Source: Candidatus Saccharimonadota bacterium
GTDB lineage: Bacteria; Patescibacteriota; Saccharimonadia; Saccharimonadales; JAXHMH01
Reading direction: 5' to 3'
NCBI GenBank assembly: GCA_034521515.1
Contig: JAXHMH010000002.1
Coordinates: 437,761 to 501,760, forward strand
Length of the DNA stretch: 64,000 bases
Shown: positions 4,946 through 63,692 of the stretch, piece by piece
Layout: every line of letters starts with the position of its first letter
Numbering within the stretch: position 1 is the first letter of the stretch
The notes under the pieces: model-generated
The model's database searches: none
Seen by the model: only the letters and a program-made list of their open reading frames with translations
What the model was told of the DNA's origin: nothing
Made by a program: the position numbers and the translations under genes

Positions 4946-6157
4946 ATGCTAAAAACACTAATTTCACGTATATTTCGCCGCCATCACTACTGGCGTAACA
5001 TTGGGTTTGATGAGCTCAGTGAGCTATATACGAGCATGATGTTTAGAAACCTGGCTCTAAGCTTGGTCGGTATATTTATACCGATATACCTATACGAACT
5101 TGGGTTTAGTCTGCCGATTATATTGTCGTTTTACGTGGTTATGTTTCTAACACGCATACCGGCAGATTTTATTACAGGTTATTGTGTAGCCAAATTTGGC
5201 CCTAAACACACTATGTTTTTAAGTTACATAGCCTATGTCATTGCGTTATCACTTTTTACAAGCTACGAACAATTCAATTGGCCAATTTACTTACTAGCAG
5301 TCGTGTGGGGTATTAGCGGCAGCCTGTTCTTCATTGCATTTCATGTTGATTTTTCTAAGGTGAAGCACAAAAAACACGGTGGTAAAGAGCTGGGGGTCTT
5401 AACTATAATGGAGCGACTTGGAGCTACGTTAGGGCCAATTACCGGTGGCGTTGTGGCCGCATTGTTTGGAGCACAGTACACCTTTTTAGCCGCCACATTG
5501 TTTTTTATGACCGCTTTAATCCCATTATTTTTTACTGCAGAGCCGGTCAAGACCAGGCAGCATCTAGACTACCGAGGGCTACCTATCAAGAAGCTTAAAC
5601 AGGATTTTATCTCGCACGCGTCACTTAGTGTCGAAAACAGTACCCATATTGCTATCTGGCCGTTGTTTCTAGCGCTATTTGTGTTTGTTGACAATATTTA
5701 TCTTCAGATTGGCGCCCTAACTTCATTTGCTGTTATTGTGTCGGTGATTCTTGCCCGAGTTATCGGTCAAACGGTTGATAATAAAAAAGGTAGGCGTTTA
5801 CTAAGAATTGGCTCACGGGCAAATATAATTCTACATGGACTACGGCCAATGGTCAGTTCGTTTGGGCTCGCGCTGTCAGTAAACTTTATTCACGAGATTT
5901 TGACTACATCTTTCCGCTTACCGTATATAAAAGGTATGTATGATCGAGCCGATGAGCTAGAGGGGCACAGAATTGTCTATATTGTTTCGCTAGAAGCTCT
6001 TAGCTGTATTGTTAGAGCAGCATTCTACGGGTTGCTGGCAATTTTGGCGCTTAGTTTCAGTTCATTTAGTGTGTTTGTTGCTGCTTTCGGGTTAGCGGCA
6101 ATTGCTTCATACGGTATCACGCTAGAAAAATTCCCAGCTTTGAATGTAAAAAAATAG
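4946..6157 (+). CDS. Polytopic membrane transporter, probably MFS-type
   Basis: 403 aa with about 12 predicted TM helices in a 6+6 layout and a central cytoplasmic loop. The family call rests on topology only. Confidence 0.5.
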   Translation: MLKTLISRIFRRHHYWRNIGFDELSELYTSMMFRNLALSLVGIFIPIYLYELGFSLPIILSFYVVMFLTRIPADFITGYCVAKFGPKHTMFLSYIAYVIALSLFTSYEQFNWPIYLLAVVWGISGSLFFIAFHVDFSKVKHKKHGGKELGVLTIMERLGATLGPITGGVVAALFGAQYTFLAATLFFMTALIPLFFTAEPVKTRQHLDYRGLPIKKLKQDFISHASLSVENSTHIAIWPLFLALFVFVDNIYLQIGALTSFAVIVSVILARVIGQTVDNKKGRRLLRIGSRANIILHGLRPMVSSFGLALSVNFIHEILTTSFRLPYIKGMYDRADELEGHRIVYIVSLEALSCIVRAAFYGLLAILALSFSSFSVFVAAFGLAAIASYGITLEKFPALNVKK

Positions 6158-51059: not shown

Positions 51060-51109
51060 AGTTTCAATTACCTCTGATCGCTTGCATTATTACACCACAT
51101 TCTCTTCTA

Positions 51110-51130
51110 TTCCAAGACCAGGTCTTGGAA
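51110..51130. repeat. REP-like palindrome TTCCAAGAC-CAG-GTCTTGGAA (solo copy, with outer inverted arms about 51088..51150)
   Basis: The same 21-bp core flanks the RAYT gene at 62361 and 63063. Confidence 0.7.
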
Positions 51131-51197
51131 ATCGGAGAAATGTGGTATAGATGTTATTTTTGGCGTGCTATTAGCGGCGTAGTTAAGGCTACGCTTT

Positions 51198-51280
51198 GCT
51201 TTAGTCCTCGAAGAGAACTTACACTCTGCACATGCTCAGTCAACTCTGGACAACAAAGTCAGTTGGCACTCTTGACCATG
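51198..51280. repeat. Imperfect direct repeat copy 1 (about 80 bp) upstream of hrcA
   Basis: It shares ...AAAGTCAGTTGGCACTCTTGAC... with 51388..51465. Confidence 0.55.
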
Positions 51281-51448
51281 CCAAGACTACCAACATAACG
51301 TTCACTACCAGCACCGCCTGTTGCACGCCTATCTTGCCAGTTTCTTTTCCAGTCCAGCTACGCTGTAGCAACAACTACACCTTGCTCTGGTCTTCAAAGA
51401 GAACTACCAAGCTAGGCATGCCCAGTCGGTGCCGGACAATAAAGTCAG

Positions 51449-57479: not shown

Positions 57480-58404
57480 GGTCAATCCTATGAAGATAGC
57501 AATATTATCACGAGGCCCGGGTAACTACTCAGTCAAACGGTTTATGCAAGAGTCTGTTGATCGAGGTCATGAAGTTTTAGTAGTTGATTATACCAAGTGT
57601 TTCGCGACGATCGAAAAGAGCAATCCAATCGTTAGCTATGAGGGGTTAGATCTCAATGACTTGGACGTAATCATCCCACGAATTGGGTCGTCTTATACGC
57701 GTTATGGTAGTGCAATTGTACGTCAGTTTGAGATGCGCAACGTGTTTACTACTACTAGTTCTATTGCGCTTACTCGTTCACGTGATAAATTGCGAAGTAT
57801 GCAGGTGTTAGCGCGTGCTGGTGTGGGAATACCTAAAACAGTCTTCTCGCGCGGTGTAACTACAGACATTGATGAGTTAATCGATGATATTGGTGGAACA
57901 CCTGTGATTATTAAGTTAGCTCGTGGTACTCACGGCAATGGTGTTGTTCTCGCGGAAACCAAAAAGGCTGCTAAGTCTGTACTGCAGGCCTTTTACGTTA
58001 TGGATGATGATGGCACTAATATTTTACTGCAAGAATTTATCGCTGAATCTGCTGGTACTGACATCCGAGCGTTTATTGTTGGTGGCAAAGTTGTTGCTAG
58101 TATGCAGAGACAAAGTTTGGACGATGATTTTAGATCGAACCTACACCAAGGGGGTGAAGGTAAACCCGTTAAGTTGACTGACGAAGAAAAGAAAACCGCT
58201 CAGAAAGCGGCTAAATCTCTCGGGTTATCTATATGTGGCGTTGATATGATGCGTTCCGATAAAGGGCCGTTAATATTGGAGGTTAATCCAAGCCCCGGTC
58301 TTGGCATAGAACACGTAACTGGTCGCAATGTTGCCGGTAAAATTATTGACTATGTTGAACAAAATGCTCGCGGTAAACGCAAACGAGACCGCGTAGGTGC
58401 TTAG
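57454..58404 (+). CDS. rimK: RimK-family alpha-L-glutamate ligase (ATP-grasp)
   Basis: MKIAILSRGPGNYSVKRF...ARGTHGNGVVL, with the ATP-grasp motifs. Confidence 0.85.
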   Translation: MTLIEEKSKVNPMKIAILSRGPGNYSVKRFMQESVDRGHEVLVVDYTKCFATIEKSNPIVSYEGLDLNDLDVIIPRIGSSYTRYGSAIVRQFEMRNVFTTTSSIALTRSRDKLRSMQVLARAGVGIPKTVFSRGVTTDIDELIDDIGGTPVIIKLARGTHGNGVVLAETKKAAKSVLQAFYVMDDDGTNILLQEFIAESAGTDIRAFIVGGKVVASMQRQSLDDDFRSNLHQGGEGKPVKLTDEEKKTAQKAAKSLGLSICGVDMMRSDKGPLILEVNPSPGLGIEHVTGRNVAGKIIDYVEQNARGKRKRDRVGA

Positions 58405-60179: not shown

Positions 60180-60416
60180 CTAAATCAAACGCTTATTGCG
60201 AAAAGCTTGCCCTGATTCGGTTTTCAGATATTTTTCAAATTCCAAAGCCTTTGACTTTGCCACAAAAGAACAATAATAAATTAGCTCGACCGGTCTTTTA
60301 CCTTTCGTGGCAAGAACGTCACCCTTAGAGTGTTTGCTTACACGTTTTTGTAAGTCATTTGTTGAGCCCGTATATATAGAGCCATCACCGAGCTTTAATA
60401 GATATACATAATACAT
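60180..60416 (-). CDS. GIY-YIG nuclease-domain protein (stand-alone, 78 aa)
   Basis: YYVYLLKLGDGSIYTGSTNDLQKRVSKH matches the GIY-YIG motif. Confidence 0.7.
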   Translation of the reverse strand: MYYVYLLKLGDGSIYTGSTNDLQKRVSKHSKGDVLATKGKRPVELIYYCSFVAKSKALEFEKYLKTESGQAFRNKRLI

Positions 60417-60701
60417 AGATTAATTTTAGCCCCACTACGTTAAAGCTACGAGGGGCACACATCGCAAATAAAAAGTGTGACAGACCAACTTGGCCTGCCA
60501 CACGAAGCTTTATGCGAAGTGTGGAGGGCCATCCTGCCTGTCTGTTAGACAGAACGGGCAGGCTGGGACAGCGGACTTCGTCCTCTTCCGCTCGCTCGCC
60601 AGAGAAAATGCCTACGACGCTTTCTCTGGGCTTCACTCGCTGCACCGAACCCACTTTTGCTTTTGGGCAAAAGACCTGGGTTCTCGTGCCCGGAGGGCAT
60701 C
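60417..60701. other. GC-rich highly structured intergenic block (candidate ncRNA, family unassigned)
   Basis: Multiple perfect local hairpins: CCTGCCTGTCTGTTAGACAGAACGGGCAGG, CCAGAGAAA-n13-TTTCTCTGG and CTTTTGC-n6-GCAAAAG. GC content is clearly above that of the flanking genes. The overlapping ORFs look spurious. Confidence 0.35.
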
Positions 60702-60742
60702 AAAGAAAAAACCCCACCACTAAAGGGTAGGGTCTTTTCTTT
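60702..60742 (-). terminator. Imperfect long hairpin directly abutting the tRNA-Lys 3' end
   Basis: The sequence is AAAGAAAAGACCCTACCC...GGTGGGGTTTTTTCTTTG on the minus strand, with a U-tract after the stem. Confidence 0.55.
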
Positions 60743-60818
60743 GGAGGGCCCACTGGGACTCGAACCCAGGACACCCTGCTTAAAAGGCAGGTGCTCTAAC
60801 CGGCTGAGCTATGGGCCC
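60742..60818 (-). tRNA. tRNA-Lys (UUU)
   Basis: Manual cloverleaf: acceptor GGGCCCA/UGGGCCC, anticodon loop CU-UUU-AA, T-loop UUCGAGU, and CCA encoded. Confidence 0.85.
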
Positions 60819-61130
60819 CCAGATCTTTGCACCGTGTTGTCACTGCTTCTGGCAAAGCCAGAACTCCGCCGACACTCTTGGCGAACTGCTGTGTTGCCTG
60901 GCTTGTGGTGCGTCCTCAACGTAGCTAAACTACGTCTCCGGTCGCTCCTCACCGGCGCCGTGCACTTCATACAAGTGCAAAAATCTGGAGGTCCGTGATT
61001 TAACCCTAACAGGGAAATAACTTCTAACATTATGCTGATTTTACATAAAAAGTCAATCTGATGTGCATCTGTTAGCGGTACAATCCCGTGTTACAATAAC
61101 AGATGAAAATGAGTTAGCAGAGGAGTAATT

Positions 61131-61862
61131 GTGTCTGGACATAGTAAATGGTCAACCATCAAACGGCAAAAAGGTGCAAATGATGCTAAGCGTGGCGCCA
61201 TTTTTACCAAGCTAGGAAACGCCATTGCCGTAGCCGCAAAAAGTGGTACTGATCCGGATATGAACTTTGCTTTGCGCCTGGCGATAGACCGCGCCAAGGC
61301 GGCCAATATGCCTTCAGTAAACATACAGCGCTCTATTGACCGTGGCTCTGGAAAACTCGGTGGCGAACAAATCCAAGAAGTTTTATACGAAGGGTACGGT
61401 CCAGGTGGCGTGGCGGTGCTTGTAGAAGCGGCGACGGATAACTTAAACCGGACTTATCCGGAGGTTCGATTAGCGTTTTCTAAACACGGCGGTAATATTG
61501 CAGAAAAAGGCGCCGTAGCCTTTCAGTTCGAACAAAAAGGGATGATTCGTGTCAAAGGAACGGGCGATGACCTCATGATGAAGTTGTTAGAGGCAGGAGC
61601 TGAAGACGTGCAGGAAGAGGATAACGAATCGATTGTTTATACTGCCCCAAAAGAGTTTGCAAAAGTTCGTGACACACTCAAAGATGTCGGGCTAGAGGTC
61701 ACTGAGGCGGAGTTAACTTTTGTCCCAAACAATACGGTAGAGGTTACAGATGAGTCTACGGCTGGTAAAATCATGCGCATGATGAACGCGCTAGAGGAGC
61801 TTGATGACGTTACGACGACGCATACAAACTTTGATATAGCGGAGGAACTTCTTGCGAACTGA
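61131..61862 (+). CDS. yebC: YebC/PmpR-family transcriptional regulatory protein
   Basis: MSGHSKWSTIKRQKGANDAKRG is the canonical N-terminus. The protein is 243 aa. Confidence 0.9.
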   Translation: MSGHSKWSTIKRQKGANDAKRGAIFTKLGNAIAVAAKSGTDPDMNFALRLAIDRAKAANMPSVNIQRSIDRGSGKLGGEQIQEVLYEGYGPGGVAVLVEAATDNLNRTYPEVRLAFSKHGGNIAEKGAVAFQFEQKGMIRVKGTGDDLMMKLLEAGAEDVQEEDNESIVYTAPKEFAKVRDTLKDVGLEVTEAELTFVPNNTVEVTDESTAGKIMRMMNALEELDDVTTTHTNFDIAEELLAN

Positions 61863-62343
61863 TCGTATCTTGGGTATTGATCCCGGCACCGGCATACTCG
61901 GTTTCGGGCTTATTGATATAGACAGTCGAGGTAAGGCAAGTTTGGTTGACGCCGGCGTCATAAGAACTAAACCCAATCAGCCTGATAGTGAGCGATTGCT
62001 AATTATTTATGATGAATTATCAGAAATCATAGCTCAGACTAATCCTACATGCATGGCGGTAGAGAAGCTCTTTTTTGCACAAAATGTGACTACGGCAATG
62101 ACGGTGGCTCAGGCTAGGGGAGTTGTACTTTTAGCGGGTGAAAAAAGTGAACTTCCTCTGAGTGAGTACACTCCCCTGCAAATCAAACAGGCGCTAACAG
62201 GATACGGCCGCGCTGATAAGAAACAAATCCAAGAAATGGTGCGCGTACTTCTCAGCCTAAAAGATGTACCAAAGCCTGATGACTGTGCTGATGCATTGGC
62301 TACCGCCCTTTGCCACACCATGCACCGCAAACTAAACCTATAA
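61852..62343 (+). CDS. ruvC: Holliday junction resolvase RuvC
   Basis: ILGIDPGTGILGFGLI, with the catalytic acidic residues. It overlaps yebC by 11 nt. Confidence 0.85.
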   Translation: MRTDRILGIDPGTGILGFGLIDIDSRGKASLVDAGVIRTKPNQPDSERLLIIYDELSEIIAQTNPTCMAVEKLFFAQNVTTAMTVAQARGVVLLAGEKSELPLSEYTPLQIKQALTGYGRADKKQIQEMVRVLLSLKDVPKPDDCADALATALCHTMHRKLNL

Positions 62344-62360
62344 GACCACATTTCCTCGGT

Positions 62361-62381
62361 TTCCAAGACCAGGTCTTGGAA
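62361..62381. repeat. REP-like palindrome TTCCAAGACCAGGTCTTGGAA (left flank of RAYT)
   Basis: Identical core to the copies at 51110 and 63063. Confidence 0.75.
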
Positions 62382-62422
62382 TAGCAGGAATTATGGTATA
62401 CATACAAAAATAAATCATAGGT

Positions 62423-63040
62423 TTAGCTTGCTAGCGAGTGCTCGATCTCCGTTAACATATCCTTGTGTTCCTTATAGTCTTCAACAAATTTCAGATAATC
62501 GTGAGCATCCGTAAACAGTTCCAAAATTCGGGTTGGCTGTATCCACTCGACAGACTTATACCCAAGATAGTGGGGAAGACTTGAATACGGCCACTCTTTG
62601 TAAGCAACCGGATTGAGGTGTATATAACGAGAAATATGGTGTAAATACTCATCAGAAGTGATCATACTGGCCTTAAACCTATCTTGAAAAAGAGGACCGA
62701 CACGTTTATGTTTTTTATTAAAATACGAGGTGTAGCTACCACAAACATTTTTTATCAGATTTTTCAGGGCATTCTCCTCTAGCTGGTAAACAAGCAGGTG
62801 GAAATGGTTTGGCATAAGGCAAAAAGCCAATAGTTCAATATCGTTATAAAGCCACGGATATTGTCGACCCTTTGTATCTTTTGCTGGTTCCCTCGAAAGA
62901 TAACGTTTGAGTAGATTTAAAAAAACTGAGTAGTCTTCGTCGTCTAAAAATATCTTCCGCTTATCAACCCCTCTGTTATAAACATGGTAATGCGTATTTT
63001 CTATGTAGATTTTTCGAGAATTCCGGCTAGCCATTAACAC
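62423..63040 (-). CDS. REP-associated tyrosine transposase (RAYT; IS200/IS605-like HUH Y1 transposase)
   Basis: The HUH motif is MPNHFHLLV, the N-terminal motif is THYHVYNRG, and a Tyr-containing C-terminal helix is present (SDEYLHHISRYIHLNP). The gene is flanked by identical palindromes. Confidence 0.75.
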   Translation of the reverse strand: MLMASRNSRKIYIENTHYHVYNRGVDKRKIFLDDEDYSVFLNLLKRYLSREPAKDTKGRQYPWLYNDIELLAFCLMPNHFHLLVYQLEENALKNLIKNVCGSYTSYFNKKHKRVGPLFQDRFKASMITSDEYLHHISRYIHLNPVAYKEWPYSSLPHYLGYKSVEWIQPTRILELFTDAHDYLKFVEDYKEHKDMLTEIEHSLAS

Positions 63041-63056
63041 AATTATACAATAAAAA

Positions 63057-63089
63057 CCCCAATTCCAAGACCAGGTCTTGGAATTGGGG
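63057..63089. repeat. REP-like palindrome CCCCAATTCCAAGAC-CAG-GTCTTGGAATTGGGG (right flank of RAYT)
   Basis: Perfect 15-bp stem with a 3-nt loop. Confidence 0.75.
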
Positions 63090-63110
63090 AAAAGATGAGA
63101 TAATGAAATT

Positions 63111-63692
63111 ATGATTGCGACACTTAGAGGAAAGATTACAGAAAAATTTTCGGATAAAATAGTAATAGACGTTTCTGGTGTAGGCTATGGGGTTCTGGTT
63201 GCGCTAGAAGATTACGCTAAGCTTAACAAGGGTGACGAGATAAAGGTTTATATTTATGAGCATATTCGTGAAGCCGCTCATGATTTGTTCGGTTTTACAA
63301 GTATGGACACCATGCGGCTGTTTGAGCAGCTTTTGGGTGTGAACGGTGTAGGCCCCAAAATGGCTCTAGGAATTATGGGCATTGGCTCGGCTGATGACGT
63401 TAGGCAAGCAATTGCTGCTGGAGATACTAAGTTTATTACAACGGCACAAGGGGTAGGTAAGCGAGTTGCAGAACGGATTGTAATTGAGTTAAAAAACAAG
63501 GTTGGTCTACTTAGTACGGCTAATGAAGACAGTTTGTTTATCGGCACGGCAACAGCGGAACAGGACGAGGCGGTGCAAGCCTTAATGGCACTTGGCTACG
63601 ACGTGCAGGACGCAGTCGCTGCGCTTAAAGGAGTTGACAGTTCCCTGCCGACCGAAGACAAGGTTAAACAGGCATTGAAAGGTCAAAAATGA
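63111..63692 (+). CDS. ruvA: Holliday junction branch-migration protein RuvA
   Basis: MIATLRGKI...[10 protein letters not shown], with the HhH domain ([10 protein letters not shown]). Confidence 0.85.

Follow-up and report, generated by a model that had tools for sequence, protein, structure and literature searches.

A HUH/Y1 gene bracketed by cognate palindromes between ruvC and ruvA in Candidatus Saccharimonadota: a probable REPtron/TIRtron-type cassette

In a 64-kb stretch of DNA from a Candidatus Saccharimonadota bacterium (hereafter the window, positions in which serve as coordinates throughout), a single-copy gene for an HUH/Y1 enzyme lies antisense between ruvC and ruvA and is flanked on both sides by exact copies of a 21-bp palindrome. 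We consider it likely that positions 62344-63089, about 745 bp, form a REPtron/TIRtron-type cassette (REP, repetitive extragenic palindrome; TIR, terminal inverted repeat) made up of this gene and its two cognate palindromes. The assignment is carried by the anatomy of the locus, by the co-variation of palindrome and protein, by the recurrence and polymorphism of such cassettes at the ruv junction, and by the solo copies of the palindrome within genes of relatives. The unit is of a known kind of element, and is neither a canonical REP-associated tyrosine transposase (RAYT) system nor a member of the IS200/IS605 group of insertion sequences (IS).

The Y1 gene occupies 62423..63034 on the minus strand, and encodes a predicted single-strand DNA endonuclease/transposase of 203 residues (open reading frame, ORF, and Pfam Y1_Tnp). 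The original prediction had described a protein of 205 residues, and such an ORF does exist when the GTG at 63040 is taken as the start (62423..63040, minus strand), but the ATG at 63034 is the start used by homologs and by the NCBI protein MDZ7744630.1 (203 residues, from a Candidatus Saccharibacteria metagenome-assembled genome, MAG), which is 100% identical to the window protein. On the left, ruvC (61852..62343, plus strand; Pfam RuvC, E = 1e-50) is convergent with the Y1 gene, and on the right ruvA (63111..63692, plus strand; Pfam RuvA_N, HHH_5 and RuvA_C), with ruvB next to it, is divergent from it; yebC, ruvC and ruvA beside the cassette were all confirmed by Pfam. The 745-bp unit holds no second ORF and no tnpB. 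A -10-like hexamer, TATAAT (63042..63047, minus strand; read from the sequence), stands 7 nt 5' of the Y1 ATG inside the 5' arm of the right repeat, and the same TATAAT-7nt-ATG layout is present in the related contig L025 (L-numbers label the related loci and contigs compared). The Y1 gene probably has its promoter here, which would give a near-leaderless mRNA. A consensus promoter scan did not call it, because a -35 hexamer is missing.

The window protein is an HUH-Y1 enzyme, with its family membership established at the level of the superfamily. It matched Pfam Y1_Tnp (PF01797) with 40.4 bits, above the cutoff of 23, and the only other family it matched was the NCBIfam RAYT equivalog REP_Tyr_transpos (NF047646); no unrelated family scored better. 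The HUH metal-binding motif, N76-H77-F78-H79, is encoded at 62798..62809, and the candidate catalytic tyrosine, Y137 in S-R-Y-I-H-L-N-P (the class 2 'Y---NP' motif), at 62624..62626 (both on the minus strand and read from the sequence). H77, H79 and Y137 did not vary in either of two homolog alignments, of 18 and of 48 sequences, with Moranbacteria proteins of about 35% identity among them, nor did they vary against relatives outside the Candidate Phyla Radiation (CPR). F116-Q117, at the place where canonical RAYTs have W-Q/E, was likewise invariant in the homologs, and S151-S152 stands in the proximal tail. The confident AlphaFold (AF2) model (predicted local distance difference test score, pLDDT, of 90) had as its best PDB match in Foldseek the structure 4ER8, E. 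coli TnpA-REP on a REP hairpin (E = 1.8e-7), followed by the ISDra2, IS608 and IS200 transposases; the top 29 matches were all RAYT or IS200/IS605 TnpA proteins. PDB searches by sequence alone gave marginal matches only, so that the fold search was required. Pfam found no distal C-terminal helix-turn-helix (HTH) domain (Bac_DnaA_C, HTH_23 or HTH_28) in the 203-residue protein, which has an extra insert of about 20 residues ahead of the HUH strand when compared with the outside relatives. The family is large, with 1,126 clusters at 50% identity (E <= 1e-30).

The exact 21-mer TTCCAAGACCAGGTCTTGGAA is present at 62361-62381, 63063-63083 and 51110-51130, with the loop CAG on the plus strand at all three places, and all three copies are intergenic. 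In 100 dinucleotide shuffles no match was found, even with 3 mismatches allowed. The left copy (62361..62381, exact match), on the ruvC side and distal to the start of the Y1 gene, lies 17 nt past the ruvC stop and 41 nt past the Y1 stop. Its 5' arm, ACCACATT at 62345-62352, directly past the ruvC stop codon (62341-62343), is common to 10 other copies, and an inverted-repeat search found an extended imperfect hairpin ('double foot') around it at 62345..62397 on the plus strand (single-stranded DNA fold, dG -12.8, z -5.2). The right copy (63063..63083, exact match), on the promoter and ruvA side, lies 28 nt 5' of the Y1 ATG within a perfect extended palindrome, CCCCAATTCCAAGACC-A-GGTCTTGGAATTGGGG (16+1+16, 63057..63089, inverted-repeat search), that forms the right border of the insert and folds with a 15-bp stem and a 3-nt loop (dG -17 kcal/mol, z -6.6). 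The solo copy (51110..51130, exact match) lies in the intergenic region between gmk and hrcA, both Pfam-confirmed, at the centre of a long hairpin with the arms ACCACATTCTC and GAGAAATGTGGT on either side of the core (51094..51146, plus strand; single-stranded DNA fold, dG -15, z -6.3). The outer arms are imperfect at the copies at 51110 and 62361. These results bear out the original prediction of the same palindrome on both sides of the gene, with its coordinates corrected by 1-2 nt, of an extension of the right copy, and of a third, solo copy with outer arms between gmk and hrcA.

Bracketing by a cognate, lineage-specific palindrome is a property of the whole family. In a repeat scan with one genome per species, the window core was multi-copy in Saccharibacteria MAGs, with the loop CAG/CTG, and in two Moranbacteria MAGs, with the loop TAA/TTA. 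The genomes carrying these repeats encode homologs beside them: that in L025 is 75% identical to the window protein, and those in L008 and L034, from Moranbacteria, are about 32% identical and flanked by the same stem with the other loop. The first-examined homologs elsewhere are each bracketed by a palindrome of their own, about 30-50 bp 5' of the start and just past the stop, for example GTTTCCAAGGAG[C/G]CTCCTTGGAAAC and TTTACAAGGAC[C/G]GTCCTTGTAAA, and the same bracketing was found in 80 more metagenomic loci with proteins of 41-60% identity. A word of at least 12 nt was common to both flanks in 56 of 72 family genes, versus 3 of 162 control ORFs of the same loci. The palindromes are lineage-specific and, across dozens of loci, change together with the protein lineage; a second Y1 paralog in the MAG MGR_bin277 has a different palindrome of its own. 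When 16 Saccharibacteria copies were stacked, a 5' arm of about ATATTAnAACACAWT, ending 8 nt before the core, was kept in 11 of the 16, always on the side set by the loop CAG; the repeat unit is therefore asymmetric and longer than 21 bp. On the plus strand of the window the conserved arm precedes each flanking palindrome, and in both the window and L025 the two flanking copies carry arm and CAG loop on the ruv-coding strand.

This co-variation, with the bracketing far above that of control genes, speaks against reading the palindromes as ordinary signals of the host, for instance terminators or another regulator's operators, that happen to lie beside a decaying transposase gene. The left copy does lie between convergent genes, a place at which one would expect a bidirectional terminator, and one terminator-like site was called, on the minus strand at 63089-63057. 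However, that site is the only one and lies 5' of the Y1 gene, a place with nothing to terminate; a role of the palindrome as an intrinsic terminator was thus rejected. No T-run follows the left or the solo copy, copies occur in frame within essential genes of relatives, and the Y1 gene is intact with invariant catalytic residues. We therefore give the host-signal explanation almost no credence.

Beside the left palindrome, a 15-nt inverted repeat (14 of 15 positions complementary) joins 62327-62341 with 62417-62431, at the last codons of ruvC and of the Y1 gene, and encloses the palindrome; the 123-nt region spanning it has a dG of -20.3 (z -4.8). It may be a bidirectional terminator of both convergent genes. 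The repeat is absent in L025.

The original prediction had called the interruption of ruvC-ruvA by a RAYT with its REPs unusual. The position is real, but at least six more contigs of Saccharibacteria have a cassette at this junction, carrying different palindromes and proteins of two divergent types, and the site is empty in close relatives. The order yebC-ruvC-[palindrome]-Y1 (antisense)-[palindrome]-ruvA-ruvB is present in L025, where the core at the left copy is 100% kept while the surrounding DNA is only about 65% identical to the window; ruvC/ruvA cassettes were also found in L040-L042, L060, L097 (41% protein identity) and L130. The ruv site accounts for 5 of the 39 family loci with enough flank, and the others are at pilus, pheT and unrelated sites. 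In a less biased sample of five loci, led by RuvA homologs, two close relatives have ruvC abutting ruvA, with spacers of 47 and 59 nt and no palindrome, which answers the question of ruvC-ruvA spacing raised by the original prediction. Of the rest, one combines the cassette with IS1595 fragments, a second has a gap holding an antisense ORF that is not annotated, and the third lacks an adjacent ruvC. The window sequence immediately to the right of 63089 (AAGATGAGATAAT...ATG) corresponds to the ruvA leader native to L129, where the site is empty, and the insert is therefore delimited by the two palindromes.

The tree of RuvC plus RuvA and the tree of the Y1 proteins were incongruent (Pearson r = 0.26). 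The Y1 types of the window, L025 and L040 on the one hand and of L060, L130 and L097 on the other were interleaved on the host tree, and the clade of the window type also has members at other sites. Simple vertical inheritance at the ruv locus was rejected from this incongruence. From the empty close relatives and the discord of the two trees, it follows that cassettes have been gained, lost or replaced at the ruvC/ruvA junction, either by site-specific insertion or by allele replacement through recombination in the conserved ruv flanks.

Much of the same evidence fits an autonomous IS200/IS605-like insertion sequence, in which the unit of hairpin, gene and hairpin would move via a single-stranded circle and the solo copies would be by-products or remnants. 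The HUH-Y1 fold and the hairpins near both ends are as in IS608 and ISDra2, the 5' arm and CAG loop stand on the same strand at both flanks in the window and L025, as in the left and right ends of IS608-type elements, and the insert is bounded by two palindromes and is missing from close relatives. Two divergent cassette types at one junction, the disagreement of host and cassette trees, and the presence of the same protein clade at other sites add to this. On the other hand, IS200/IS605 transposases (subclass 1.1) have a Y---Q motif, many near-identical copies and often tnpB. None of these was seen here: the motif is Y---NP (YIHLNP), the window has a single copy, the MGR_bin277 paralogs are only about 49% identical to the query with no near-identical copies seen, and there is no tnpB. 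Orthologous cassettes have diverged in place to about 65% nucleotide identity, and the orientation of the ends is inconsistent across the family. An IS200/IS605 element was thus rejected as the class of the unit, and we regard its autonomous movement as such an insertion sequence as unlikely.

The recurrence at the ruv genes could also mean that the protein is a domesticated factor for Holliday-junction processing, the palindromes extruding as cruciforms or hairpins on which RuvABC acts and the Y1 gene being kept at ruv for co-regulation. The gene is antisense between ruvC and ruvA in seven contigs, with proteins down to 41% identity, and the very large size of the family in organisms with tiny genomes suggests retention. 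However, only the 5 of 39 loci given above are at ruv, close relatives do without both cassette and palindrome at a junction where ruvC abuts ruvA, and host and cassette trees disagree. We consider this explanation quite improbable, more so than the insertion-sequence one.

Several further features of the ruv junction were observed in single contigs. In L130, two fragments of an IS1595-type DDE transposase (1070-1795) lie between ruvC and the Y1 gene; they are enclosed by the direct repeat CAAGGACGGACCCTGAGC (about 1009-1030 and 2477-2494), and their position inside this repeat-bracketed segment indicates that they entered the cassette later. At the same place, L060 has some 900 nt of additional DNA. 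The empty ruvC-ruvA spacer of L127 (2455-2500) has the sequence ACTACAACACCATATT, which resembles the 5' arm of the repeat (compare ACTACAACATAAT in L014 and the arm in the window); it could be a target-site preference, a remnant of an arm, or a chance match in AT-rich DNA. In the P0293 contig, from a close relative (JGI sample 3300071358; RuvA 69% identical), a 128-residue antisense ORF without a Pfam match fills a 363-nt ruvC-ruvA gap, and it may be a decayed Y1 gene.

Exact copies of the palindrome number 3 in the window, 6 across the contigs of MGR_bin277 and 11 in the Moranbacteria genome MFSH01. In MGR_bin277, solo copies lie in pheT (L017, 6929-6949), prmC (L027, 7208-7228) and a dinB-family gene (L014, 7776-7796). 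A further in-frame copy lies in L031 (5106-5126). In other Saccharibacteria they were found in argS (L006, 6805-6825) and dus (L004, 2451-2471), and in Moranbacteria in cysS (L023, 5529-5549), a radical-SAM enzyme gene (L016, 6663-6683), a glycosyltransferase (GT4) gene (L039, 6200-6220) and uppP, where two stand in tandem (L010, 3912-3932). In-frame palindromes are translated as FQDQVLE, SKTRSW or PRLSLG. In the dinB-family gene the palindrome lies in a clean insertion of about 28 residues versus the ortholog; the case is less clear for pheT, argS and dus, where the segments with the copies are variable or can be aligned. An in-frame copy of their own palindrome (..NSFPRLSLGK..) stands at one shared site 5' of the HUH motif in both Moranbacteria Y1 genes (L008, 6505-6525; L034, 1952-1972), and in L008 a further copy (6038-6058) overlaps the C-terminal codons of the Y1 gene. 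Thus the palindrome is indeed multi-copy in related genomes that carry the gene, as would be expected from the original prediction, but the number is low and most of the copies examined there are intragenic.

The window palindrome can be read in all six frames without a stop codon. Stop depletion as a general design was rejected, as 13 of 56 family palindromes are free of stops against an expected 10.6 +/- 2.5 (P = 0.22).

The in-frame solo copies resemble the Rickettsia palindromic elements (RPEs) that Ogata et al. reportedly described in 2000, and intragenic REPs, in being short palindromic repeats in frame in housekeeping genes of reduced genomes. To our knowledge, no transposase has been assigned to RPEs. 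The present system differs from RPEs in that a candidate cognate enzyme is encoded beside the master copies, and in that the three copies of the window are all intergenic. In-frame REP insertions, comparable to those in the Moranbacteria Y1 genes, are described by Quentin et al. (PMC6006769) for subclass 2.4 only.

Subclass 2.1 of Quentin et al. 2018 (PMC6006769, Table 1) has the signature NH[YF]H or NHVH, FQ or W[EQ], Y[IV]HLNP or YIELNP, and SS in the proximal tail, and the window motifs NHFH, FQ, YIHLNP and SS match it in a comparison at the level of motifs. Subclass 2.1 corresponds to Group 1 of Bertels and most of the TIRYTs of Di Nocera et al. 2013 (PMC3733652), and its subgroup 2.1.2 has been described as heterogeneous for the distal HTH domain. 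The nearest relatives found outside the CPR, plasmid-borne proteins of 30-34% identity from Sporomusa, Legionella and Pseudomonas (P. aeruginosa), all Y1_Tnp, are canonical TIRtrons: TIRs of 26-38 nt with the published GGGGWSAS motif flank all three, and Bac_DnaA_C/HTH tails are present in two of the three (Sporomusa and Legionella). The TIRs of these outside TIRYT genes, at L131 314-347 and 1266-1299, L132 239-264 and 1209-1234, and L133 224-261 and 1069-1106, contain GGGGTCAG, AGGGTCAG or GGGGACAG. Given the subclass 2.1 motifs and the TIRYT type of the nearest outside relatives, the window protein is a short CPR branch of the subclass 2.1/TIRYT group without the distal HTH tail.

The cassette shares with TIRtrons the motif signature, the single-copy gene and inverted repeats at the flanks. 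It differs in its protein of 203 residues, which lacks a Bac_DnaA_C/HTH domain and has the insert before the HUH strand, and in its hosts, since Patescibacteria/CPR lie outside the published surveys. Its flanks are short perfect palindromes, unlike the 26-38-nt, non-palindromic TIRs; being identical palindromes, they are inverted repeats by definition, but without GGGGWSAS. Also, palindromes of the window type occur solo, whereas no REP-like sequences were found for subclass 2.1 (PMC6006769). Di Nocera et al. 2013 (PMC3733652) had already noted that self-complementarity occurs in some TIRs, which make up families of moderate abundance, and had described intragenic REPs. The terminal repeats of the CPR branch appear to have become self-complementary and REP-like. 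Many CPR palindromes (compare L094 and L097) are centred on ..AGGGTC-N-GACCCT.. (GGTC-N-GACC), like the TIR motif fused to its own complement, and such a fusion may be a route from a TIR to a REP-like palindrome. In the window palindrome the two halves stand the other way round, GACC-A-GGTC.

With REPtrons, represented by E. coli TnpA-REP (RAYT, 4ER8) and its REPs and bacterial interspersed mosaic elements (BIMEs) (Nunvar 2010, PMC2817692; Ton-Hoang 2012 and Messing 2012, PMC3479197), the cassette has in common an HUH-Y1 enzyme with the class 2 Y---NP motif, the best structural match, a gene bracketed by a hairpin repeat that is dispersed elsewhere in the genome, and one cognate repeat family per paralog. 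Canonical RAYT/TnpA-REP proteins belong to subclasses 2.2, 2.4, 2.5, 2.7 and 2.8 (PMC6006769), and their W-Q/E motif has been linked to recognition of the GTAG guide. The RAYT identity given by the original prediction thus holds as far as the HUH-Y1 family and the TnpA-REP-like fold are concerned; the protein is not a canonical RAYT, because it scores below the equivalog cutoff, has FQ instead of the conserved WQ/WE, and is paired with repeats that have no GT[AG]G foot.

The points that weigh against a REPtron/TIRtron-type assignment are the following. The score against the RAYT equivalog was 54.6, short of the cutoff of 80. Neither GTAG nor GTGG was found at the foot of any of the three window copies; a different arm, that of the left copy, stands 8 nt 5' of the core in its place. 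Copies are few (3 in 64 kb and 6 exact in MGR_bin277), versus the hundreds of REPs in a REPtron, and most solo copies examined in relatives are in frame within housekeeping genes, unlike classical extragenic REPs. Across the family, the two flanks have the same centre in 12 cases and the reverse complement in 11, with no extended similarity between them. With this split, the family can be called neither IS-like (direct) nor REPtron-like (inverted), and since the flanks have no consistent orientation, the active strand and the cleavage site cannot be read from the sequence. The cassette is polymorphic among relatives and is replaced by a second type at the same site, in which it differs from REPtrons, and such turnover at the level of the cassette blurs the distinction between a domesticated REPtron and an element mobile as a unit. 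Finally, an activity of the enzyme on the palindrome is proposed from homology.

Since the protein has the HUH-Y1 fold with invariant catalytic residues and a REP-bound RAYT as its closest structure, we propose a mechanism modelled on those of E. coli TnpA-REP and of the TnpA proteins of IS608 and ISDra2. The Y1 enzyme would recognise the hairpin that the palindrome forms on single-stranded DNA. A divalent metal would be held by H77 and H79, and Y137 would cut and rejoin the strand near the foot of the hairpin via a covalent 5'-phosphotyrosine link. This activity may mobilise or maintain the repeats, and would explain why solo copies are found in the window and in genes of relatives. Binding, cleavage and mobilisation of this kind are predicted from homology, and any benefit to the host is likewise putative.

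If the assignment is right, REPtron/TIRtron systems extend to the CPR, where the family is widespread and very diverse. RAYTs had been taken by the original prediction as mainly proteobacterial, and a copy here as noteworthy; RAYT-class proteins are known well outside Proteobacteria, for example in Cyanobacteria and Bacteroidetes (PMC6006769), but the literature searched held no paper linking RAYT/REP systems to the CPR, and in published surveys non-IS Y1 genes are enriched in large genomes. The finding also ties subclass 2.1/TIRYT proteins, reported as REP-less, to palindromes that are found solo as well, which could help explain the origin of REPs from terminal repeats. It is conceivable, although we lean towards doubting it, that CPR bacteria (Saccharibacteria, Moranbacteria and others) harbour a very large, undescribed and still active branch of subclass 2.1, whose palindrome-bracketed cassettes come, go and replace one another at favoured places, the ruvC/ruvA junction among them, and whose palindromes are seeded in frame into essential genes (those of aminoacyl-tRNA synthetases, PrmC and UppP). 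In that event the system would be an RPE-like generator of protein-coding insertions with an identifiable enzyme, in some of the smallest bacterial genomes. In-frame inserts in essential genes together with a candidate cognate enzyme provide a testable model of how such inserts arise, and Saccharibacteria are genetically tractable via natural competence (PMC10633639), so that in vivo tests are possible. The leads with most promise are the inserts within genes and the turnover of cassettes at the ruv junction.

Some further observations concern the rest of the window and the searches made with the palindrome. A degenerate fourth copy at 58286-58306 was rejected; this sequence sits in the conserved RimK ATP-grasp motif EVNPSPGLG and is therefore native, not a repeat copy. 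In the window dus gene, considered as the possible place of a decayed copy, only about 13 of 21 bases match at the site of the exact copy in L004. None of the viral contigs searched had the palindrome, and carriage by phage was rejected. The gmk-hrcA intergenic region is about 440 nt, long for a compact genome, and is GC-richer at about 51160-51400. A palindrome TTGGCA-N10-TGCCAA lies at 51263-51284 in the part of this spacer between 51131 and 51500, where Rfam returned nothing; the spacer could hold a variant hrcA operator or a small RNA. In the window as a whole, Rfam found four tRNAs only. A GC-rich region at 60400-61000 has many overlapping mechanical ORFs around a tRNA-Lys (60742-60818, minus strand); outside the tRNA-Lys it gave no Rfam family and no tmRNA match, and L015, L025 and L032 share the tRNA-Lys segment at about 90% identity.

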